A stretch of 64,000 nucleotides of DNA from an uncultured Gammaproteobacteria bacterium (GTDB taxonomy: Bacteria > Patescibacteriota > Patescibacteriia > Magasanikbacterales > UBA922), in assembly GCA_964447765.1 (NCBI GenBank), contig CAYUTO010000004.1, forward strand, positions 22,561 to 86,560. Reading direction: 5' to 3'. The notes beneath the pieces are model-generated. The model was not told the DNA's origin and searched no databases. It saw only the letters and a program-made list of their open reading frames with translations. The position numbers and the translations under genes were made by a program. Position 1 is the first letter of the stretch, and each line of letters begins with the position of its first letter. Positions 5,929 through 64,000 of this stretch are shown piece by piece.

Positions 5929-7062
5929 CTATTCAACGACTTTTTTTGTTATTTTAGCAACAAAAAATCCTTCGATCTGGCTATTTGGTAAAATTCTCAA
6001 TACATTTTTTCTAATTGATTCACTAATCACGATATTCTTGAAAGAAGTTGCAATTGGTGCCACTTGAAGCTGAGGTAATACAATAGGTAAAAGCTCTGCC
6101 TCAGGAATCCGCTCAATAAATTTTTGTAACTGGACTTCATTTTCCTCAGGAGCAAAGGTACATGTAGAATACACTAGTACACCGCCCGGTTTCAGCATGT
6201 GCCATGCAGCTCGAAGCAAAATTCGTTGCGTATACGCCATTTCTTTAATTTTTCGTTCACTCCAGTACCCAAAACTCTTGGGATCTGTCGTATCAAACCG
6301 AGCTTCAGCGCTACAAGGTGCATCAAGTAGAATTTTATCAAAATAATTCTCATACTCTCGTGAAAGCTGAGCCCCATGCTCCATCCTAAGTGTGAATTTC
6401 CACCCTCCTGTGTCATTTCGAGCGACCGAGTCTCCGAGGGAGTCGAGAAATCCCTTGTTTAACGTAGAATTGCGGTTATGCAAGGGATCCCTCGATTCGT
6501 CGTGTGCCTCCTCACTCGGGATGACACTGCACGTCACCCCCAAAAGCTCCATATTATGCTTCAGCTTGAAAAAACGGACTTTATTCTTATCATTAGCGAC
6601 CAATTCACCTTTTTTCTCCATCATGGCAGTAATCTGGCTAGTTTTACTCCCAGGAGCTGCAGTAAGATCAAGAACTCTCTCCCCAGGTTTCGGATCCAGC
6701 ACTACCGGCGGAACCATACTAGCAAGGCTCTGAATATACAATTTTCCTTCAGAATAAAGCGACAAATCAGTTAGCTCTCGTTTTGATTTGTTGAGCAATA
6801 CAAAAGCACCGGGGTACCATGCAATTTTTTGAACTTTAAAGCCATTTTGCGACAATATAGGTAAGACCTCCGCTGAATTTGATTTGAGACTATTAATTCG
6901 AAACGTGGTTGGTCTACCAACAAACGTTTTCTCGATTTCACGAAAACGAGAAACACCAAAAATAAGAGAAGCCCGTTCAATAAATTTCTCAGGAAGATCT
7001 TTTCTAAATCCGTTTTTTCCTTTTTTCTTTCTTTTCATAATGCAATAGAACACGGATGACAC
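5929..7062 (-). CDS. rsmB: RNA m5C methyltransferase, NOL1/NOP2/Sun (RsmB/RsmF) family, carrying an in-frame insertion of about 40 aa
   Basis: SAM-binding motif VLDLTAAPGSKT; catalytic motifs DKILLDAPCS and PGGVLVYSTCT. A segment of about 120 nt between conserved motifs corresponds to a palindromic repeat element. Confidence 0.8.
   Translation of the reverse strand: MSSVFYCIMKRKKKGKNGFRKDLPEKFIERASLIFGVSRFREIEKTFVGRPTTFRINSLKSNSAEVLPILSQNGFKVQKIAWYPGAFVLLNKSKRELTDLSLYSEGKLYIQSLASMVPPVVLDPKPGERVLDLTAAPGSKTSQITAMMEKKGELVANDKNKVRFFKLKHNMELLGVTCSVIPSEEAHDESRDPLHNRNSTLNKGFLDSLGDSVARNDTGGWKFTLRMEHGAQLSREYENYFDKILLDAPCSAEARFDTTDPKSFGYWSERKIKEMAYTQRILLRAAWHMLKPGGVLVYSTCTFAPEENEVQLQKFIERIPEAELLPIVLPQLQVAPIATSFKNIVISESIRKNVLRILPNSQIEGFFVAKITKKVVE
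6409..6528. repeat. Structured palindromic element, copy 1 (family A), inserted in frame inside the rsmB-like CDS
   Basis: Nested inverted repeats: tgtgtcatttcgagcga...cgggatgacac (outer) and gagaaatcccttg...caagggatccctc (inner). Homologous to 48675..48791. Visibly G+C-richer than the flanking CDS. Confidence 0.75.
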
Positions 7063-7142
7063 GGAATTGTACAGAATGAAAACAGAATTAATTCGGTCTT
7101 TATTCCGTCAAATTCGTTCAATCCGCGTTCCATTATTAATAT

Positions 7143-8440: not shown

Positions 8441-8530
8441 ATAAAGTAAAAAGTAAAAACGAAAAAGTAAAAAGAAAAATGCTCAATCCACGTATTTTCT
8501 TTTTACTTTTGAGCTTTACCCTTTGACTTC
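8441..8530. repeat. A/T-rich palindromic element with tandem GTAAAAA-type arms (family B), copy 2
   Basis: Arm aagtaaaaagtaaaaacgaaaaagtaaaaag, spacer aaaaatgctcaatccacgtatt, inverted arm tttctttttacttttga. Homologous to 123..200. Confidence 0.6.
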
Positions 8531-27107: not shown

Positions 27108-28613
<1,506 letters not shown>

Positions 28614-42740: not shown

Positions 42741-42743
42741 CAT

Positions 42744-42776
42744 AAAAACTCTCCCTATATTCGGGAGAGTTTTTAA
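42744..42776. terminator. Bidirectional terminator between convergent genes
   Basis: aaaaactctccctatattcgggagagttttt. Confidence 0.65.
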
Positions 42777-46563: not shown

Positions 46564-46675
46564 ATTCCGCCTTAATTCTGTTAAATTAGTTCGATTCCGT
46601 GTTCCATTAAGCGAATGTTTAATAGAACACGGATTGGACAGAATCACACGGAATAAAAAACGGATAAAATACCAT

Positions 46676-47581: not shown

Positions 47582-48664
47582 CTAATAAATAAACATCGCA
47601 TCACCAAAACTATAAAATCGATATTCTTTTTCTACTGCTGTTTTGTAACAATTCAAAATAAATTCTCGATCCCCTGCTAAAGCTGACACAAGCATAAGAA
47701 GCGTTGATTTTGGAAGATGAAAATTAGTAATCATTGCATCAACAATACTGAATTCAAATCCAGGTGTAATAAAAATATTAATATCTCCTGTGTATGCACT
47801 CATTGTCCCATGATGAAGCAAAGCAACACCTTCGAGCGTCCGTGCAGTCGTCGTACCAATAGCAATCACTCGTCTTCCCTCTTTTTTTGCAGCAGTAATA
47901 ATTTCTGAAGTTTCTTCTATTACTTCCACCCACTCACTATGCATCGTATGATCTTCAATTCTCTCAGACTTTACTGGAAGAAAAGTTCCGAGCCCCACAT
48001 GCAAAGTTACTTCTGCAAATATAATCCCTTTTTGTTTTAACTTTTCTATTAATTCAGGGGTAAAATGAAATCCAGCAGTAGGCGCTGCAACTGATCCTTC
48101 AGGCTTTGCATACACGGTCTGATAACTCTCAAGCTCATGTGGTTCATCTTTGACATACGGAGGAATAGGAATTGATCCATATTGATTTGCTTTTCTTCGC
48201 ACCTCATCATCAGTATCAGAAAACTGCACAAGGATTGTTCCATCTTTTTCTTTAAACATCACTTCACAATAAAAATCCGGAGCAAATCGTACCACCATAC
48301 CAGTCTGAATTCTCCGACCTGGTTTTCCAAGTACTTTCCACACACCACTATTTTCCATGGAGCGCACCAAAAATATTTCCACTTCTTTCTGGTTCAATAA
48401 CGCATGGTCGGGAACTCCATCCTGATTCGCATCAGTATTTCCTGCTTCCAATTTTCCAATTAAGCGTGCTTTAAACACTTTGGAATTATTCCAGACAAGC
48501 ACATCACCAGATTGTAAGTAATCAATAATATCATAAAAATGACGATCAACCGTCGTCTTATTTTCCCGGTCAATCACCATGAGTCGTGAATGATCTCGTG
48601 GTTCGACAGATTGCTGAGCAATCCGTTCGTCAGGGAGGATATAGTCAAAGTCTTTGGTATGCAT
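47582..48664 (-). CDS. queA: S-adenosylmethionine:tRNA ribosyltransferase-isomerase
   Basis: N-terminal FDYILPDERIAQ and the overall QueA pattern; 360 aa. Confidence 0.9.
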   Translation of the reverse strand: MHTKDFDYILPDERIAQQSVEPRDHSRLMVIDRENKTTVDRHFYDIIDYLQSGDVLVWNNSKVFKARLIGKLEAGNTDANQDGVPDHALLNQKEVEIFLVRSMENSGVWKVLGKPGRRIQTGMVVRFAPDFYCEVMFKEKDGTILVQFSDTDDEVRRKANQYGSIPIPPYVKDEPHELESYQTVYAKPEGSVAAPTAGFHFTPELIEKLKQKGIIFAEVTLHVGLGTFLPVKSERIEDHTMHSEWVEVIEETSEIITAAKKEGRRVIAIGTTTARTLEGVALLHHGTMSAYTGDINIFITPGFEFSIVDAMITNFHLPKSTLLMLVSALAGDREFILNCYKTAVEKEYRFYSFGDAMFIY

Positions 48665-48674
48665 AGATTAGTAT

Positions 48675-48791
48675 TGTGTCATTCCGAGCGAAGCGTAGCG
48701 AAGTCGAGGAATCCCTTGTTTAAAGTAATATTAACTTAATGCAAGGGATTCCTCGACTCCCCTCAAAGACTCGGGTCGCTCGGAATGACAC
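48675..48791. repeat. Structured palindromic element, copy 2 (family A), intergenic, 11 nt upstream of the queA start codon
   Basis: Perfect nested inverted repeats: gtcattccgagcg/cgctcggaatgac (outer) and gtcgaggaatcccttg/caagggattcctcgac (inner). Homologous to 6409..6528. Confidence 0.75.
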
Positions 48792-48829
48792 CGAGCGTAG
48801 AAAAACTCTACCTTAGAGTAAGCATTTTT

Positions 48830-50158
48830 TCAACTCTTATTTTTAGTCACAAACGCATGTACTGCCGGATCAGTCCAGACATGCTCACGTTTGAGCGGAC
48901 GACGAAGATGAAGCCCTTCAAACGTAGTACAGCGAGATAATGCGACATACACCTGGCCAGATACAAAAGTTCCGCTACCAATATCAAGCAATACTCGATC
49001 AAACGTTTTTCCTTGAGCTTTATGAATGGTGACCGCCCATGCAAGCTTCAGCGGATACTGTATAAATGAACCGACTGTTTCTGATTCCACCTGTTTGGTA
49101 GATGGATCAAAATAAAATCGATACATGTCCCAGGTGTACATCCCAATCAATACCTCATCACCTGAATCAAGAGTAACTTTAATCATTTCATCTTCACCTT
49201 CCACTTTAGAAAAACCTTTTACCACACCCATACTTCCATTATGCCATTTTCCCCACGGATCATTATGAAGGACCATCACTCTCGCACCAATTTTTAATTT
49301 GAGTTCAGCGTCAGTCGGAAACGCTCCCCGATCAAATTTATGCTCTACTCTACCAGTGAACACACGTTCTTTCTCTTCTAGAGCCTGCAGTTGCCCCTGA
49401 TTCACCGCAGACGCAAGTGCATTGGTCGTCGTGACCCACACACCATCATATGCAGCATGATCAAAATCTTCATCTACACAACGCTGATTGAGTACTTGTA
49501 GTTGTTCGGAAGTAAGTGTCATATCTCGCACTGCATTCAAGAGTGATATAAAATCTGTATCTGTCTGGCGATACATTTTTTCAAGCTCAATTATTTCTAA
49601 TTCAAAAATTTCTTCTTCGAGCATTTTTTTCTGCTTATTTCCCCCACACACATGCGCGGCAAAAAAATACGGAGAATCATATCGTTCAGAAAAAAACTGC
49701 TGTTCGCCTCTCGTGACCACGGGCGGCAATTGATAGAGGTCACCAATCAGAATCATTTGCACGCCACCAAATGGTTTTCGTTTATCTCTACCAGCTTTCC
49801 TGAGGAATATATCAATACAATCAAATAAGTCAGCCCGAACCATAGAAATCTCATCAATGACAATTGCATCCAGTTCGCGATAAATCTTTTTCTGCTCATC
49901 ATCTCCTCGAGGATTCTTAATAGTGTCAGGCGTAGTCTCTGGGGTAAACCCAAAAAAAGAATGAATCGTCTGCCCTTCCACATTCACTGCCGCAACCCCA
50001 GTCGGCGCCAATACTACAATCTTTTTCTTGGTATGATGACGAAAATAAGTAAGCAAAGTTGATTTTCCAGTCCCCGCGCGACCGGTAATAAAAAGATTCG
50101 TATGGGTGTTCTCCATACGATCGAGGGCTTTTTTGAACTGTACATTTTTATCAATCAT
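48830..50158 (-). CDS. PIF1/RecD-like ATP-dependent DNA helicase
   Basis: Walker A GRAGTGKST, motif II DEISMV, and LIGDLYQLPPV, typical of the PIF1 family. Confidence 0.8.
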   Translation of the reverse strand: MIDKNVQFKKALDRMENTHTNLFITGRAGTGKSTLLTYFRHHTKKKIVVLAPTGVAAVNVEGQTIHSFFGFTPETTPDTIKNPRGDDEQKKIYRELDAIVIDEISMVRADLFDCIDIFLRKAGRDKRKPFGGVQMILIGDLYQLPPVVTRGEQQFFSERYDSPYFFAAHVCGGNKQKKMLEEEIFELEIIELEKMYRQTDTDFISLLNAVRDMTLTSEQLQVLNQRCVDEDFDHAAYDGVWVTTTNALASAVNQGQLQALEEKERVFTGRVEHKFDRGAFPTDAELKLKIGARVMVLHNDPWGKWHNGSMGVVKGFSKVEGEDEMIKVTLDSGDEVLIGMYTWDMYRFYFDPSTKQVESETVGSFIQYPLKLAWAVTIHKAQGKTFDRVLLDIGSGTFVSGQVYVALSRCTTFEGLHLRRPLKREHVWTDPAVHAFVTKNKS

Positions 50159-50176
50159 AGCATCGTCAACTGTACC

Positions 50177-56534: not shown

Positions 56535-56673
56535 AGATCTCCTGATTGATTGTGGTTCGGTCTGACAATGTGCCAGATTCTAATACTAAACTTCTCAGAA
56601 CAAAGCAAACTACCATAATAAGTGCTTTTTGTCAATACAAAAACTCCCCGCTTTAGACGGAGAGTTTTTAAAA

Positions 56674-59600
56674 CTATTTCAACTCTTCACCATCCTCATA
56701 CACTTCATTCTCATCAATTACGATGATGCGATCTCCTCTAAAGTTAAGTTTAGTGAATGCATCTTCAGTTACGATCCATCGTTTGATGAGCTTAGATGAA
56801 TCAGTAGGATCTACTTCAAGACGATACACTTTGGGAGAAGTAGTATATTTGATGAGGGTGTAGGCAGGATGAACGTCGGTTCTCGTAATCTCTTCACCCA
56901 CCTTATATGCATCAAGAAGACGAGGGTCTACATCTTCAATCCAGTCTGAGCGATAGTTCAACTTGTTGAACACTTCTTCACTGGTAATCCAGTATTTCGT
57001 ATCATTAATGAGTACATAGACTTTAGGATCATAGGGAGTTTTAATGAGTGCTCCATAGGTTGGACGATACAGGGGTCCGAGAGGTAAGAATGACAGCGGA
57101 TCAAGAGGGACTGAAGTGAGGGTTACATTGGTAACCACACCTACATCACTCCATGATGAGAAGTAAGTAAAATACGTTCGTTCATTCGGAATTGGCCGCC
57201 TCGTACAGTCTGACGTGACATAGAATACTGAAGGAGAGCCTGATGATTTATATGGCTGCTCCGGAGTAAGTGGACATGCGTTTGAGGTAAGGGTAATCGT
57301 GTCTGAAAGAATGAGTTCTCCCCCTTCAGGAGTTCGTAATTTAACGTATACGGTCTTTTCTCCATTCCCAAGAGGGAGCGTGTACCAGAGTGGAGAGATG
57401 AGTGATTCAAATGATCCATTGGCGAATGTAGGGTCAGTAGAAACAGCAACCATGGAAGCATTAGGTGAAGTTATATGCAGAGACACCAAGCGACTGTTTG
57501 TTGAGAGTGCTCCCTGGTTGATCGTGAAGTGAGATGCTGAAGACGGAAGGGTGGGAGGAAGGTATGGGATACCGCCGTTTGAGGAAGATGTATCGTTAGA
57601 GTCACTGTCACCCTCCCCTTCTTCACCCATCAGAGCAAAAAGTGAGAATCCAGGAGTGTCACAGGTGACGGTAAAAAGACTCGTGTTAATTGTGCACGGA
57701 GAGAGTTCGGTCCATGTGCTAGTTGCATAACGATAAATAACTAAGGTAGTAGGGTCGAGACTCCCAAGTGTATCTGGATCGTAGGTCATGGTGAGTTCAA
57801 TTGGTTCATCGAATTCTGAGATGATAGTTGAGGTGTTTGCAATTGCTTTGAGATGAAAAACGAGAGAACCAACGACTGTTCTACCAGCAGGAATGCCTCC
57901 GTCTTCAATCACCGTTACAGTATCTACTTGTTTAATCTGGAACACAACATCAGTGGAAGTAGTAAATGCAGGAGGAATATCAAGAGCAATACTCTCAGCT
58001 ACCGTCTCAAGTTGAATAGTAGCACCTAAACTTGAAGAAACTGCAGAACTCTCTGAAGCAATTACCGGCGCTGAAAATGAACACCCTTGAGTCACAAACG
58101 TGCGATGAGAACTAGTTGCAACATCACCATCAGCTGTCACAGCACGAGGAGTGTAGTGATAAACCGTACAAGGTAGTAACCCAGTCATCAAAACTTCATG
58201 AGTAGTAACTCTGGAAGATGTATTACTCTCAGTAGTCGAAACTCCCAGTGATGCAACCAACCCATACAACACTCGAGATGAAGCAAGTCGATTAGTAGAC
58301 CACGAGATAGTAGCAGTTGAAGTGCTGATATTAGTTGAAGTGACACTAGAAATGCTTAATAGTGCGTTAGTGATAGTAGAAGTAACAGAAGAATACGCAC
58401 TCGAAGTCGATACGTTATCAGCGCGCACTTGAAATGAATAACTAGAATTAGGAGTGAGTCCAGTAAAAGTATAACTTGTCTCAGTAGTAGTAACGACTGA
58501 CCCCACAGTACTAGAGATAGAGTAGAATGTTGCACCTGCAGCAGAAGACCACGACAATTGAACTGAAGAAGTAGAAAAAGTACTTGTAGTAAATTCAGGA
58601 GAGGAAAGACTAGTCAATTCTGAAAATGTCAAAATATATGCAGCTCCTGAATTAGAACCATTTACATTTGTTTCACTTGGAGCACCTACAATCAACACAT
58701 CATTAGTTTTATCAAAAGAAACCTCAACACCAAACCATGAATCAATACTTGCATCAGATGCAACCAATTTTTCATTCTCTTCCCAATCTCCACTTTCTCG
58801 GTCAAAAATATATACGGCTCCAGTGTCAGTAGTATTACCAGATGCACCAATCGCAACTTTCTCACCTAGACCATCGATTGCAACAGCTTCACCAAAAAAG
58901 TTACTTGCTGCAGCATCACTTGCGACAACCTTTTGATCTAATGACCACGATACCCCACTCCGCACAAAAACATACCCCGAACCAGAAGCACTCCCAGCGT
59001 CATCATTTGAATAAGCTCCAACAACGACATACTCCCCTGAATCAGAAATGGAAACTGCATTACCAAAAAAATCACTAGCGGCAGGATCATTTGCATTTAG
59101 TTTTGCCTGTTGAGCCCAAGTACTGGTCGTACGATAAAACACATAGGCAGAACCAGAACTAAGAGCAGTATCATCATCATTCGGAGCTCCGACAAGTATA
59201 TAATCACCTGATTCTGAGATATCTACAGCTCGACCAAACCAATCGTCAGCCGCCCGGTCGGTAGGAACTATTTTTTGCTGTTGTGACCATACTCCACTTC
59301 CATCTCTTTTAAAAATATATGCAGAGCCTGCTGCACTCAATGTATTAGCACCCGCAGCATCCTGATCCTCGCGATATGCACCAATAATTGCATATTCACC
59401 CGCCATAGCAAGTTTATCACCAAAAAAATCTTGATTTGCAAGATCACTTGAAACAAGTCTTTGATGAAGATCCCATGAGGAGCCCGTACGTTTATAGACA
59501 AACACCGCACCAGCCTGCGACCCATCATTATGGTCGGTCACCATAGCATAATCACCCGCAATCGCTACATTTTCCGCAAAAAAAGTAGAACCAGTCGATG

Positions 59601-59868
59601 TGGTAATCATCGCCTGCTGAATCCAAGAACCATCCTCAAAATGAAAAATATAAGCTTTCTTTTGATTATCAACTCCAACTATTGCATAGTCGCCAGAGAC
59701 ATCAACTGAGTATCCAAATCCCTGACTAGCCACTCCATCTGAAGGAAGAATTTTAGCATCTTCTACCCAAGCGGCCCGAATAAAATCAAAATGAATATAA
59801 AAAGATAAAAAACCAAAAGCAATAATGCTTAAAATCCAAAAAGATTTGTTAAAAAGAAATTTTTGCAT
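56674..59868 (-). CDS. Giant secreted or surface-anchored protein (1064 aa): N-terminal signal/anchor, FG-GAP-like beta-propeller repeats, two FN3-like domains, conserved C-terminal module of about 450 aa
   Basis: N-terminal hydrophobic segment. Repeats of the type DFFGxAVxIxxxGDYxxVGAP. FN3-like segments (LSWSSAAGATFYSIS...SYSFQVRADN). The C-terminal region is nearly identical to its downstream paralog. Confidence 0.7.
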   Translation of the reverse strand: MQKFLFNKSFWILSIIAFGFLSFYIHFDFIRAAWVEDAKILPSDGVASQGFGYSVDVSGDYAIVGVDNQKKAYIFHFEDGSWIQQAMITTSTGSTFFAENVAIAGDYAMVTDHNDGSQAGAVFVYKRTGSSWDLHQRLVSSDLANQDFFGDKLAMAGEYAIIGAYREDQDAAGANTLSAAGSAYIFKRDGSGVWSQQQKIVPTDRAADDWFGRAVDISESGDYILVGAPNDDDTALSSGSAYVFYRTTSTWAQQAKLNANDPAASDFFGNAVSISDSGEYVVVGAYSNDDAGSASGSGYVFVRSGVSWSLDQKVVASDAAASNFFGEAVAIDGLGEKVAIGASGNTTDTGAVYIFDRESGDWEENEKLVASDASIDSWFGVEVSFDKTNDVLIVGAPSETNVNGSNSGAAYILTFSELTSLSSPEFTTSTFSTSSVQLSWSSAAGATFYSISSTVGSVVTTTETSYTFTGLTPNSSYSFQVRADNVSTSSAYSSVTSTITNALLSISSVTSTNISTSTATISWSTNRLASSRVLYGLVASLGVSTTESNTSSRVTTHEVLMTGLLPCTVYHYTPRAVTADGDVATSSHRTFVTQGCSFSAPVIASESSAVSSSLGATIQLETVAESIALDIPPAFTTSTDVVFQIKQVDTVTVIEDGGIPAGRTVVGSLVFHLKAIANTSTIISEFDEPIELTMTYDPDTLGSLDPTTLVIYRYATSTWTELSPCTINTSLFTVTCDTPGFSLFALMGEEGEGDSDSNDTSSSNGGIPYLPPTLPSSASHFTINQGALSTNSRLVSLHITSPNASMVAVSTDPTFANGSFESLISPLWYTLPLGNGEKTVYVKLRTPEGGELILSDTITLTSNACPLTPEQPYKSSGSPSVFYVTSDCTRRPIPNERTYFTYFSSWSDVGVVTNVTLTSVPLDPLSFLPLGPLYRPTYGALIKTPYDPKVYVLINDTKYWITSEEVFNKLNYRSDWIEDVDPRLLDAYKVGEEITRTDVHPAYTLIKYTTSPKVYRLEVDPTDSSKLIKRWIVTEDAFTKLNFRGDRIIVIDENEVYEDGEELK

Positions 59869-59929
59869 AGTCCTATAATAAAGTATAGTGATAGTATATC
59901 ATATCAAAAAATAAAAATTTTAACCTTCT

Positions 59930-62900
59930 TTATTCCAAACTTTCACCATCTTCATACACTTCACTCTCACCAATCACGATGATTCGATCTCCTCTGAAGT
60001 TGAGTTTCTTGAACGCGTCCTCAGTTACAATCCAGCGCTTGATAAGTTTGGTTGCATCAGTAAGATCAACTTCAAGACGATAGACCTTGGGGGAATTTTG
60101 GTACTTAATCAGAGTGAACGCAGGATGAACGTCAGTTCGAGTTATTTCTTCTCCTACATTATATGCATCAAGAAGACGAGAATCTACATCCTCGATCCAG
60201 TCTGAGCGATAGTTAAGTTTAGCGAATACTATCTCATCCGTGACCCAATATTTGGTGTCGTTAATCAAAACGTATACTTTGGGATCTCCCGGTGTCTTGA
60301 TGAGTGCTCCATAGGTAGGACGGTACAAAGGACCAAGAGGAAGGAAAGAGAAAGCATCGAGAGGCACTGAAGTAAGAGTAGCAAGAGATACAACACCTAC
60401 ATCGCTCCATGATGAAAAGTAAGTAAAATACGTTCTTTCATTCGGAATTGGCCGTCTCGTACAGTCTGACGTGACGTAGAATACTGAGGAAGAACTCAAT
60501 GTTTTGTAGGGACGCTCTGGTGTAAGTGGGCATGCGTTTGAGGTTAGAGTAATAGTATCTGAGAGGATGAGCTCTCCCCCTTCAGAGGTTCGTAATTTGA
60601 TATAAACCGTCTTTTCTCCATTCCCGAGAGGGAGTGTATACCAGAGTGGAGAAATCAGTGATTCAAATGATCCATTGGTAAATGTAGAATCAGAAGAGAC
60701 AGCAACCATCGAAGCATTAGGTGAAGTTATATGCAGAGACACCAAGCGACTGTTTGTTGAGAGCGCTCCTTGATTAATAGTAAATTGAGATACCGAAGAC
60801 GGAGGGGCGGGAGGGATATATGGGATACCACCGTTTAAGGGAGATGTATCACCAGCACCACCCTCATCATCCCCTTCTTCTCCCATAAGAGCAAAAAGTG
60901 AGAATCCAGGGGTGTCACAAGTAACGGTAAAGGCGTTCGTATTTACAGTGCAAGGAGAAAGTTGTGTCCATTCGTCATCAGTATATCTAAAGATTGACAA
61001 CGTCGTTGTATCAATCCCCTCAAGGTCACTTGGATCATACGTCATAGTAACCTCAACCGGTTCATCAAAAGTTGAGATAATAGTTGAAGTGTCTGAAATA
61101 GCTTTAAAATCAAAAACAAGAGACCCGATAATATTTTTACCCGCAGGCAACCCTCCATCAGTCGTAACAATATCCTTCTCAAGTCGCTTGAGCTGAAAAG
61201 CGGCGGCAGTCGTACTTGTAAATCCAGTTGGCACAGTAAGGGAAACCCCGTTACCTGATTCCAAAAACGTAATCGACCCTCCAGACGAAGAAGACACTAC
61301 GGAAGCTTCATGAGATATAATTGGTGCAGAAAATTGACACCCCCGAGTAGCAAAGGTGCGTTTAGAACTCGTAGTAAAATCTCCTGATCCTGCAACCGCT
61401 CGAGGTGTATAATTATAAACCGTACAAGGAACAAGATTAGTAAGAGAAACCTCATGATCAAGAACTCGAGTGAGTGTATTGATTTCTGTAGTAGACACAC
61501 CGAGGGAAGTAATAAATCCGTATAAAATTCGAGAAGACGCAGGGCGGTTCGTAATCCAAGAGATAGTTGCAGTCGAAGTTCCAACGTTAGTTGAAGTCAC
61601 ATTTGAAATAACAAGAGTTGGTTGTGTTGAGGTGGTAAAAACAGAAGAATAAGAACTTGAAGTTGATAAATTATTTGCTCGTACTTGGAACGAATAACTC
61701 GTATTAGGATTAAGTCCAGAAAAAGTATAATTAGTTGCAGCAGTAGTAACTGGAGAAGTCGCAGTTGAAGAAACAGTATATGAGGTTGCACCAGAAACAG
61801 GTGACCATGAAAATGGTATAGAAGCTGCCGCAGCGGTAAAAGAAACAAACGAAGGAACTCCAAGAGAACTTCCCTCGGAGAGGGTGAACATCATAATTCG
61901 AGAATTCCCATTATCAGCCACATATAACCGATCATTATTAGAATCATAGGTTACCCCCTTAGGTGTTGCAAATTTTGATTGCGAAGCAGAGCCTGCTGCA
62001 CCCGTAAAATCAGTCTGCCCAAGAACATAACTTGCATTCATGCCATTTGAAATTGTGGTTGTTGAAAAGTCATATACTACCACTCGATCACTATCATTAT
62101 CTCCCACAAATAAACGTTGATTTTCTGCATCATACGCAAGACCTTGCGGATCATCTAATCCCGATTGTGTTGCAGCTGCAGAACTCCCTGTAAACGTTGA
62201 CTGACCAAGAACATAACTCGCACTTGGAAAATCAACTTCAGTCGTATTTGCAGGCGAAGCATCAAAAATAGATATTCTGTGAGCTGTAGTTTGAGTAACA
62301 TACAGACGTTCATTATCAACATCATAGGTCACGCCTCGCGTGCTAGGTAATGATGAAGTACTGATACCTGAATAGCCATTATCGAAATCCGGTGCACCAA
62401 AAATATATTTAGCATTCATACCATTTGAAATGGTACTCGTTGCAACATCGAACACAATAACTACTGCACCGCCCACAAAAAGTCGCTGATGTACAGGGTT
62501 ATAAGCCAACCCTGCTGGACTTGATAAACCTGCTTGTGTACCTAAAGCACTACCGTTCGTAAATAGAATCTGTCCAAGAACATAATTAGCAGGCATGCCG
62601 TTCGAAATTGTCGTTGTAGAAAAATCGTATACCTTAACACGATTATTACCTGTATCAGAGACAAACAAACGATTACTCACCAGATCATATGCAAGTCCGT
62701 CAGTATTATTGAAACCTACTTGGGTAGTCGCCGAACTATTGCCAGTAAATAAAGCTTGTCCAAGAATATGTAACGCAGGCTTACCATTTGAAATAGTCGT
62801 TGTGGAAAAATCAAAAATACTTACACGATTCGAATTAGACACAAAAAGTCGGCTATTATTTGAATCATACACGAGACCGTCAGGTGAAACCAATCCTACC

Positions 62901-64000
62901 TGAGTACTACCACTACTACCTACAGTAAAAGTGGTTTGTCCAAGCACATAGCTTGCACTCATACCATTCGTAATGGATATTGAAAGATCAAATACTAACA
63001 CTCGATTATTACCACCATCCGTAACAAAAAGATAATCATTTTCATAGTCATAGGCAAGACCCTGAGGAGCACTCATACCACTTTGAGTAGTAGCTTGCGT
63101 CTTAGTATTAAAATTAGACTGGCCCAATACATAATCAGCCTCATAATCAATTAAATCATTATTACTATCAAGAGTATGGACCAACACTCGATGATTCTGA
63201 TCATCCGACACAAACAACCGATGATTCACCGTATCAAGAAAAGTATAGTAAGGAAAATCAAACCCAATTCGTGTAGGACCATTATTGTAGCCAACTCTCG
63301 TATAAACTGGCACCAACTGATCACTGTCATTATAGTCAAAATGTCCAAGTAAATCAGTTGCGTTCATCCCATTAGTAATAGTTGATGTAGCCGCATTAAA
63401 AATACTCACTCGATTAGTACTATCTTGGACTACATACAATTTACCAGTCGTCTCATTATAAGCAAGCCCCCCTGACCCAAGAGTACTCGACTGTGTCGTA
63501 GCAAACGTAGAAGTAGTAAAATTCGGTTGACCTAACTGATAAGTAGCATTTTCTCCATTAGTAATAGACGCAACATCATATACTACAACTCGTCGATTAG
63601 AAGAATCATTTACAAATAAACGATTACTTATAGAATCATATGCGATACCACTAGGTGCACTCAATCCCGATTGAGTTGTAGCAGCAGTACTACCGGTAAA
63701 CGTAGTTTGTCCCAACACATAATTAGCAGGCATACCGTTCGAAATTGTCGTTGTAGAAAAATCATAGACGCTAACACGATTCGCATTTCCACCTTGCGCA
63801 ACAAATAAACGGTTATAAACCGAATCATAAGCAAGTCCCGTAGGGCCCCGAGTACTAGTTTGAGTCGTAACACCAGTGCTGGCCGTGAATGTAAGTTGTC
63901 CCAACACATAATTAGCAGGCATACCGTTCGAAATTGTCGTTGTAGAAAAATCATAGACGCTAACACGATTATTACCTGTCTGTCCAACAAATAATCGACT
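59930..64000 (-). CDS. Giant surface protein, paralog (more than 1356 aa; N-terminus lies beyond the window): NHL-type beta-propeller repeats, FN3-like domains, shared C-terminal module
   Basis: The frame stays open from the first in-window ATG (63922) up to the window edge. The repeat unit is LAYDxxxNRLFVxDxxNNRVxVYD. The C-terminal 450 aa are about 90% identical at the DNA level to 56674..58200. Confidence 0.7.
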   Translation of the reverse strand, partial: SRLFVGQTGNNRVSVYDFSTTTISNGMPANYVLGQLTFTASTGVTTQTSTRGPTGLAYDSVYNRLFVAQGGNANRVSVYDFSTTTISNGMPANYVLGQTTFTGSTAATTQSGLSAPSGIAYDSISNRLFVNDSSNRRVVVYDVASITNGENATYQLGQPNFTTSTFATTQSSTLGSGGLAYNETTGKLYVVQDSTNRVSIFNAATSTITNGMNATDLLGHFDYNDSDQLVPVYTRVGYNNGPTRIGFDFPYYTFLDTVNHRLFVSDDQNHRVLVHTLDSNNDLIDYEADYVLGQSNFNTKTQATTQSGMSAPQGLAYDYENDYLFVTDGGNNRVLVFDLSISITNGMSASYVLGQTTFTVGSSGSTQVGLVSPDGLVYDSNNSRLFVSNSNRVSIFDFSTTTISNGKPALHILGQALFTGNSSATTQVGFNNTDGLAYDLVSNRLFVSDTGNNRVKVYDFSTTTISNGMPANYVLGQILFTNGSALGTQAGLSSPAGLAYNPVHQRLFVGGAVVIVFDVATSTISNGMNAKYIFGAPDFDNGYSGISTSSLPSTRGVTYDVDNERLYVTQTTAHRISIFDASPANTTEVDFPSASYVLGQSTFTGSSAAATQSGLDDPQGLAYDAENQRLFVGDNDSDRVVVYDFSTTTISNGMNASYVLGQTDFTGAAGSASQSKFATPKGVTYDSNNDRLYVADNGNSRIMMFTLSEGSSLGVPSFVSFTAAAASIPFSWSPVSGATSYTVSSTATSPVTTAATNYTFSGLNPNTSYSFQVRANNLSTSSSYSSVFTTSTQPTLVISNVTSTNVGTSTATISWITNRPASSRILYGFITSLGVSTTEINTLTRVLDHEVSLTNLVPCTVYNYTPRAVAGSGDFTTSSKRTFATRGCQFSAPIISHEASVVSSSSGGSITFLESGNGVSLTVPTGFTSTTAAAFQLKRLEKDIVTTDGGLPAGKNIIGSLVFDFKAISDTSTIISTFDEPVEVTMTYDPSDLEGIDTTTLSIFRYTDDEWTQLSPCTVNTNAFTVTCDTPGFSLFALMGEEGDDEGGAGDTSPLNGGIPYIPPAPPSSVSQFTINQGALSTNSRLVSLHITSPNASMVAVSSDSTFTNGSFESLISPLWYTLPLGNGEKTVYIKLRTSEGGELILSDTITLTSNACPLTPERPYKTLSSSSVFYVTSDCTRRPIPNERTYFTYFSSWSDVGVVSLATLTSVPLDAFSFLPLGPLYRPTYGALIKTPGDPKVYVLINDTKYWVTDEIVFAKLNYRSDWIEDVDSRLLDAYNVGEEITRTDVHPAFTLIKYQNSPKVYRLEVDLTDATKLIKRWIVTEDAFKKLNFRGDRIIVIGESEVYEDGESLE

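Follow-up and report, generated by a model that had tools for sequence, protein, structure and literature searches.

We asked what a perfect nested palindrome directly upstream of queA is for: whether it acts on that gene, as a regulator or as a terminator for the gene before it, or whether it is one copy of a non-autonomous repeat, all of which the preliminary description had raised. The window, by which we mean the whole 64-kb stretch of DNA analyzed, comes from a Magasanikbacteria-like bacterium of the candidate phyla radiation (CPR).

A nested palindrome between a helicase gene and queA

The palindrome measures 116 nt (positions 48676 to 48791) and lies between a gene for a PIF1-like helicase upstream (48830 to 50158, minus strand; Pfam PF05970 and synteny) and queA downstream (47582 to 48664, minus strand), which encodes the tRNA preQ1(34) S-adenosylmethionine ribosyltransferase-isomerase (Pfam Queuosine_synth, PF02547, E = 6.5e-124). 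Its outer stem joins GTGTCATTCCGAGCG (48676 to 48690) to CGCTCGGAATGACAC (48777 to 48791), and its inner stem joins GTCGAGGAATCCCTTG (48703 to 48718) to CAAGGGATTCCTCGAC (48742 to 48757). Both stems are perfect, as had been described, with 0 mismatches in either arm, and the sole further matches to the arms in the window belong to a copy at 6411 to 6526 within an rsmB-like gene; we refer to the two as copy 1 and copy 2. Exactly 11 nt (48665 to 48675, minus strand) separate the foot of copy 1 from the queA ATG, which bears out the intergenic position and the spacing first reported. This leader is A/U-rich (AAUACUAAUCU) and has no Shine-Dalgarno motif. Such motifs were found for 6 of 47 window open reading frames (ORFs) of at least 150 amino acids, though the 16S rRNA 3′ end carries CCUCC; since the genome rarely uses them, the leader is normal in this respect. 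The 16S rRNA itself ends at about 27109 to 27125 (minus strand) with the canonical ...GGAUCACCUCCUUUCU.

As an inverted doublet, copy 1 consists of two hairpin units around a central loop, closed by the pair G48676/C48791, and a family profile recovered it at E = 4.6e-30 (nhmmer). The queA-proximal unit A (48677 to 48717, plus strand) reads TGTCATTCCGAGCG-AAGCGTAGCGAA-GTCGAGGAATCCCTT and is identified by a half-unit HMM (E = 1.8e-12), by covariation, and by motif counts; it has a basal stem ATTCC/GGAAT, then a tandem G.A, then a covarying G-C pair, and its spacer holds the mini-hairpin motifs GCGAAGC and GCGTAGC. The helicase-proximal unit B (48743 to 48790) reads TGTCATTCCGAGCG-ACCCGAGTCTTTGAGGGGA-GTCGAGGAATCCCTT on the minus strand (half-unit HMM E = 2.1e-11). 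Between them, the loop (48718 to 48742) comprises 25 A/T-rich nucleotides whose end bases lengthen a CCCTT/AAGGG helix and whose sequence differs among copies. The 10 nt to the left of the element (48792 to 48801, minus strand; CTACGCTCGG), a flank shared with two related loci (L048 and L242), resemble the right end of a unit, CTACGCTTCGCTCGG, and may be the remnant of an earlier tandem copy; they are also complementary to the adjoining CCGAGCG arm.

Folding places the transcribed minus strand of copy 1 at −73.9 kcal/mol, far below shuffled sequences (−34.6 ± 3.8; z = −10.5; 0 of 200 shuffles as good), and the plus strand at z = −8.5. Between about 56.5 kb and queA the genes all point the same way and are separated by tiny gaps, so the element is almost certainly transcribed within a polycistronic RNA, in which the predicted fold leaves the queA AUG region unpaired. 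The proposal that copy 1 terminates transcription of the helicase gene did not hold up: no U-tract follows the hairpin on the transcribed strand (AAUACUAAUCU) or the other (CCGAGCGUAGAA), a terminator scan was negative at the element, and convergent gene pairs hold no excess of family members. The only terminator-like feature in this spacer is a small hairpin, ACTCTA-AGG-TAGAGT followed by T5 (48801 to 48819, minus strand), which lies between the helicase stop codon and the element and is kept in L048 and L242. It is weakly terminator-like, its fold is not above shuffles, and it overlaps a promoter-like consensus match, the one match that a promoter scan returned upstream of the element and no more than chance would give.

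Searches of the 64-kb window with the family profile and the half-unit HMM returned two copies in total, with no third copy and no lone half-unit. The window holds several other repeats. A 48-nt direct repeat (7044 to 7091 and 46621 to 46668; 73% identical) is rich in ACACGGA/ACAGAAT motifs; one copy overlaps the rsmB/F-like ORF at its start, and the other falls within the 5′ portion of an rlmH-like ORF. Purine-rich repeats of the AAAAGGTAAAAG type (125 to 206 and 8443 to 8529) form inverted pairs both mutually and locally, and two similar terminator-like palindromes (TAAAAACTCTCCC...GGGAGAGTTTTT) stand at gene ends (42743 to 42774 and 56639 to 56670). Large genes for FG-GAP/fibronectin-type surface proteins (56674 to 64000) carry extensive internal and paralogous repeats, assigned to families D1 to D10, including 300-nt and 185-nt repeats 3256 nt apart.

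The hairpin unit and its family

Copies of the palindrome are numerous beyond the two in the window, and they occur in Patescibacteria metagenome-assembled genomes (MAGs), metagenomes, and phage contigs. A genome scan with a 17-mer of the inner arm gave mostly chance matches, as expected at such a length, along with true full-length relatives in Magasanikbacteria, Komeilibacteria, Roizmanbacteria, Peribacteria, and unclassified Patescibacteria MAGs, as well as in two MAGs labelled Verrucomicrobia; one MAG, JBAZTX01, has at least 6 loci. A metagenome scan for the inner hairpin gave at least 120 loci. Across all fetched loci, the nhmmer profile gave at least 97 matches and at least 71 distinct full-length copies, and full-length relatives overall, metagenomes and phage contigs included, come to at least about 75. 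Taxon names here are the labels of public records, and genes in related loci are simple ORF calls. Several records (L079 and L242 from CAYSXR01, L087 from CAZMEW01, and L067 and L111 from CAZHNI01) are titled "uncultured Gammaproteobacteria." The label is probably wrong for at least L087 and L242, judging from sequence comparison: L087 is syntenic with the Magasanikbacteria-like window at 75 to 82% DNA identity, and L242, from the same assembly as L079, has a queA about 85% identical in DNA and the same neighbor genes.

A half-unit pattern scanned over viral contigs matched 8 stretches, spread over 6 contigs. One of these contigs, from a Mu-like phage (IMGVR_UViG_3300029288_000501; 34 kb, 62% GC), carries at least 9 full-length copies, located at L253 4245 to 11017, L248 303 to 399, and L250 2792 to 2878. 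The genes of the Mu-like phage include MuA, a MuB-like ATPase, Gam, an amidase, and an S24 repressor, and the copies mostly stand directly before the GGAG ribosome-binding site of the next gene. Other phage-like contigs (L247, L249, and L251/L252) have one copy apiece; the first viral match, L121, was rejected as a chance hairpin without outer arms. GC content of the host loci ranges from 36 to 67% and that of the element is near 52%, and the unit arms are conserved in sequence across these very different hosts. The family is apparently undescribed: neither topic searches of the literature nor searches with its sequence strings returned a description of it, Rfam has no family for it, the window passes Rfam gathering thresholds only with rRNA and tRNA, and permissive thresholds gave only sub-threshold microRNA-hairpin noise at the element.

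All copies share one plan, TGTCATTCCGA-N-CG, a variable spacer, N′-GAGGAATCCCTT, and a variable loop, followed by the mirror image. Among the matches listed, all 71 distinct full-length copies consist of a unit, a loop, and an inverted unit, with units of about 41 to 48 nt. The bases N and N′ pair within a half-unit, as G-C in 65, C-G in 42, and A-T in 6 of 126 half-units, and the ATTCC/GGAAT stem covaries, appearing also as ATTTC/GAAAT and ATCCC/GGGAT. When N and N′ were tested on distinct half-unit types, 97.1% of cells were paired and 28 cells showed double changes, against 8.5 ± 2.1 after shuffling (0 of 500 shuffles as high), and in a pair-counting test the signal collapsed in registers slid off the true pairing. 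A single long hairpin predicts the same base in both halves at N and N′, a prediction that holds at N, in the outer arm, for only 20 of 64 elements and at N′, in the inner arm, for only 18. At these diagnostic positions, 38 of 64 elements fit the intra-unit model alone, 16 fit both models, and none fits the long-hairpin model alone. Since covariation is intra-unit here and does not follow long-hairpin pairing, each half of the element is itself a hairpin unit.

In each unit, then, a 5-bp basal stem leads into a tandem G.A and the covarying pair, beyond which come a purine-rich internal loop and an optional apical stem-loop. The last varies by subfamily, and 30 of 105 long spacers fold significantly into a distinct apical hairpin. 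The motif GCGNAGC, an extraordinarily stable DNA mini-hairpin (PMC13037366), is present in 42 of 134 units. The outer TGTCA/TGACA and central CCCTT/AAGGG helices, which join the two units, covary as well, and the next 1 to 3 positions are complementary well above chance, as are loop positions 1 to 3 across the family. The element therefore has the architecture of a REPIN, two REP-like units in inverted orientation (PMC3116915).

This architecture changes how the two window copies are to be read. The preliminary description had taken copy 1 as master-like for its perfect stems and the rsmB copy as less well preserved. Perfect long stems arise whenever the two halves share one unit type, which is so in 16 of 64 elements, and those of copy 1 only mean that both of its units are of the G-C type. 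The rsmB copy is not decayed; its two units differ, and each is internally compensated (ATTTC/GAAAT and ATCCC/GGGAT). Two folds are open to the element, a single long hairpin and a four-way structure. Copy 1 has its minimum-energy fold in the former, for which nearest-neighbor models give −69.5 kcal/mol against −30.6 for the unit hairpins as RNA, and −39.3 against −8.0 as DNA. Because these modeled energies favor the long hairpin so strongly, the unit hairpins must matter when one half is exposed or held by a protein.

Placement and history of the copies

Copies occur in short intergenic gaps irrespective of gene orientation, or in frame in protein loops that tolerate them. Among the matches listed, 26 of 71 copies are flanked by tandem genes, 7 by divergent and 3 by convergent ones, 9 lie inside ORFs, and 26 have one flank unknown or distant; the tandem/divergent/convergent split mirrors the background of adjacent gene pairs (236/51/48). 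Neighbor and host genes are unrelated housekeeping genes, including those for aldehyde dehydrogenase, SufB, an E2 acyltransferase, PriA, OGG, pilins, sigma factors, and ribosomal protein S16. Many copies lie 1 to 11 nt past stop codons. A fixed spacing to start codons was considered and dropped, as distances run from overlap to more than 300 nt, with no more than a loose cluster at 8 to 14 nt. Tandem clusters are present in L201, L135, and L210, an arrangement that has been described for REPINs (PMC3116915).

Copy 2 (6411 to 6526; units at 6411 to 6456 on the plus strand and 6526 to 6482 on the minus strand) is oriented opposite to copy 1, and its spacers are S1 and an inverted S3. The opposite orientations and unrelated flanks reject a segmental duplication of the two window copies, as do the many copies elsewhere. 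Its host is an ORF for an RsmB/F-like rRNA methyltransferase (5929 to 7062, minus strand), recognized by alignment and by Pfam PF17125 and PF01189, the latter in two stretches; copy 2 lies in frame and splits the Methyltr_RsmB-F domain. The copy is read through as about 39 to 41 codons in a hypervariable loop of RsmB/F. A homologue that is 91% identical (P0002) also has it, one that is 87% identical bears a different insert, and those that are about 70% identical have none; an exhaustive protein search with the 41-residue peptide from the rsmB copy returned 0 matches. In related loci, in-frame hosts include a nucleotidyltransferase and an HD-domain protein.

Other in-frame inserts occupy the same loop in the RsmB/F homologues P0003, P0006, P0042, P0067, and P0113, and palindrome-like in-frame inserts occur in a loop of the QueA homologues P0132, P0136, P0140, and P0146. 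The insert peptides (e.g., PTLPLQGRE, PSPLLQGEG, and PPRPSPNRGG) look like translations of different palindromic repeats. Given these RsmB/F and QueA inserts, in-frame colonization of the kind known for Rickettsia palindromic elements (PMC10969869) seems common in these bacteria.

The history of copy 1 can be followed at orthologous helicase-queA junctions from six relatives (L048, L242, L087, L243, L244, and L245). The queA tree, ((L087,((L048,window),L242)),(L243,L244)),L245, unites the four loci that have the element (the window, L048, L242, and L087) in one clade, and the other three lack it; copy 1 is inherited at this junction in four related Magasanikbacteria. Where the element is absent, the spacer is empty in L243 (3976 to 4000; 25 to 34 nt), is 109 nt long and unstructured in L244 (3892 to 4000; z = −0.8), and holds an unrelated perfect 17-bp hairpin in L245 (2110 to 2212; AAGGCTTATGAGGCTTA...; z = −5.6). 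Since close relatives make do with an empty site or with unrelated sequence at this position, queA does not need the element. The expectation of a non-autonomous repeat in the queA 5′ region, 11 nt before the ATG, stands, and copy 1 is probably not a dedicated regulator of queA. The helicase-queA junction as a whole is a hot spot of turnover, and in L244 a cas4-cas1-cas2 module (1 to 1274) lies a few kilobases upstream of the ygjP-helicase-queA block, a position at which the window has none.

Between the window and L048, none of 67 arm positions has changed, compared with 10 of 99 positions of other noncoding sequence (P = 0.006) and 155 of 1083 in queA (P = 7e-5). Units at this junction have undergone exchange, with spacers S1/S2 in the window, S3/S2 in L087, and S3 plus an inverted S1 (rcS1) in L242, a pattern consistent with recombination among copies or with an arrangement that was once tandem. 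L087 also lacks the PIF1-like helicase gene. Its junction (6160 to 6172) shows a deletion relative to window positions 48791 to 50169, with one end a few bases ahead of the helicase start and the other precisely at the element's left boundary, and since the left unit, S3, differs, the sequences suggest recombination between element copies.

Origin and role of the family

Target-site duplications, a possibility raised for each copy in the preliminary description, do not occur above chance: 54 of 62 copies lack them, and shuffled flank pairs give the same distribution. The flank signal is limited to T at −1 and A at +1, which lengthens the outer helix. Nor is a transposase present within about 8 kb of copy 1, so that the non-autonomous appearance first reported is borne out. 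We searched for a partner gene by all-against-all clustering of 690 neighbor ORFs, by Pfam annotation of 50 neighbor or host ORFs, and by tblastn with IS200 TnpA and E. coli RayT as probes. In about 1.8 Mb around roughly 110 copies, these found no RAYT- or IS200-like gene and no recurrent neighbor family, turning up housekeeping or phage genes only; this is a weak negative, as the probes were of limited sensitivity and the search covered the fetched loci. Weak tblastn matches in L192/L204 and in L250 were traced to an HD-domain protein and an S24 peptidase, respectively.

REPINs are REP doublets that form hairpins and are mobilized by RAYT tyrosine transposases (PMC3116915, PMC3337134), and their populations are described as lineage specific and vertically inherited. 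Like them, the present elements consist of two short imperfect-palindrome units inverted around a spacer, can form a long hairpin with compensatory changes, are mostly extragenic among the matches listed, occur in tandem clusters, lack target-site duplications, and persist at orthologous sites. However, no RAYT was found in the sampled loci, the unit sequence is unrelated to known REPs (its tail is TGTC rather than the GTAG of E. coli-type REPs), and the family extends across phyla, over a broad span of host GC content, and into phages, with several copies in frame inside genes. Given the missing RAYT and a distribution that is not lineage restricted, the family should not be filed with REPIN-RAYT systems; it only works like one, in those features that could be tested. 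By description, Rickettsia palindromic elements (PMC10969869) are similar in being palindromes of about 100 to 150 bp that sit in frame in housekeeping proteins without destroying them, but the present hosts are CPR and other bacteria and most copies are intergenic.

Integron attC sites are nested imperfect palindromes that are recognized in a folded single-stranded form, with mismatches marking one strand, as the present element would be. The analogy is structural only, as the present element has no R″/R′ GTTRRRY cores, no cassette arrays, and no integrase, and an attC-like or dif-like site was rejected on sequence grounds.

Taken together, the family looks like a set of selfish palindromic repeats scattered through CPR bacteria, other bacteria, and some phages, and we think it probable that these are REPIN-like inverted doublets of hairpin units, non-autonomous and maintained by a putative hairpin-recognizing enzyme. 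The conserved unit hairpins with their single-stranded tails would be the recognition sites of an enzyme that binds hairpins in single-strand DNA. This enzyme is the step on which the proposal chiefly turns; it would be of the HUH/Y1 type, as in REP-RAYT systems, and would copy or move the doublet. Phages may aid the spread of the family between hosts. Several observations weigh against this: the lack of a RAYT/IS200-like gene in the 1.8 Mb sampled, the preference of copy 1 energies for the long hairpin over the unit hairpins, the presence of only two copies and no single units in the 64-kb window, and a span of hosts from 36 to 67% GC and of phages where REPINs are described as lineage specific. 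The invariant arms, moreover, could equally reflect a function at the level of the host. A classical miniature inverted-repeat transposable element (MITE), that is, a deletion derivative of a DDE-transposase insertion sequence with the outer arms as terminal inverted repeats (5′-TGT...ACA-3′), would account for the TG...CA ends, the conserved 14- to 16-nt terminal repeats, and the short length without coding capacity, and DDE-derived MITEs such as Correia/NEMIS, ERIC, and RUP (PMC10969869) are likewise small, non-coding, and dispersed, with terminal inverted repeats. We consider such an origin very improbable. The lack of target-site duplications rejects a DDE-type MITE, no DDE transposase recurs near the copies in the neighbor clustering, and the intra-unit covariation of the doublet interior, together with the conserved inner arms, would be unexpected of plain terminal inverted repeats.

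Two further explanations would have the host keep the element. It could be a cis-acting structure of the helicase-queA transcript, whether a terminator or attenuator, an RNase III-type site, a stabilizer of the helicase 3′ end, or a brake on queA translation. The −73.9 kcal/mol hairpin in a co-directional string of genes, with its foot 11 nt from the AUG, would suit such a role, as would arms that stay invariant between the window and L048 while their surroundings change, the Mu-like phage copies directly upstream of ribosome-binding sites, and the unrelated strong hairpin that L245 has at the same junction (z = −5.6). We nevertheless judge it unlikely, since the same sequence stands by unrelated genes in all orientations at background rates and is also read in frame within proteins, L243 has an empty orthologous site and L244 an unstructured one, covariation at diagnostic positions backs intra-unit pairing and not the long hairpin, and no Rfam family matches. 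Intrinsic terminators and terminator-like repeats (e.g., SPRITE) are also stable G+C-rich hairpins in the spacer after a gene, but the present family has no U-tract and no convergent-end bias, and its sequence recurs inside ORFs. Alternatively, the element could be a domesticated DNA signal, such as a binding or structural site for a conserved nucleoid, replication, or recombination protein, that spread by recombination and not by transposition. Arm conservation across hosts of 36 to 67% GC is unusually strong, units are swapped between orthologous copies, and the L087 deletion stops exactly at the element boundary, all of which this explanation would accommodate. Against it stand the haphazard placement, which includes coding loops and phage genomes, the tolerance of empty sites in related genomes, and the fact that no candidate protein was found, and we regard it as distinctly unlikely.

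Under the REPIN-like reading that we prefer, the hairpin in RNA would be a by-product: the helicase-queA transcript should carry a structure of about −70 kcal/mol ending 11 nt before the AUG, which could hinder exonucleases, be a substrate of RNase III, or lower the rate of initiation. Such effects on stability, processing, or initiation are possible, and relatives do without them. A broader proposal, conceivable though doubtful, is that these elements form a phylum-spanning, phage-carried class that can fold as a four-way, cloverleaf-like structure, with strictly conserved arms that would be read by a new hairpin-specific mobilizing enzyme or by a conserved host or phage factor, and that its insertions would routinely remodel essential CPR proteins in frame.

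For annotation, the striking hairpin before queA should not be recorded as a riboswitch-like regulator or a terminator, and the family accounts for spurious short ORFs and for odd insertions seen in many proteins from metagenomes. Covariation within the unit gives a testable recognition structure, a hairpin with a tandem G.A that is often capped by GCGNAGC and could guide a search for a partner protein. The family is common to phages and distant bacteria and inserts in frame into enzymes such as RsmB/F. CPR genomes are very small and compact, so a repeat family able to persist in them is a useful marker of the ways in which mobile DNA endures strong streamlining.
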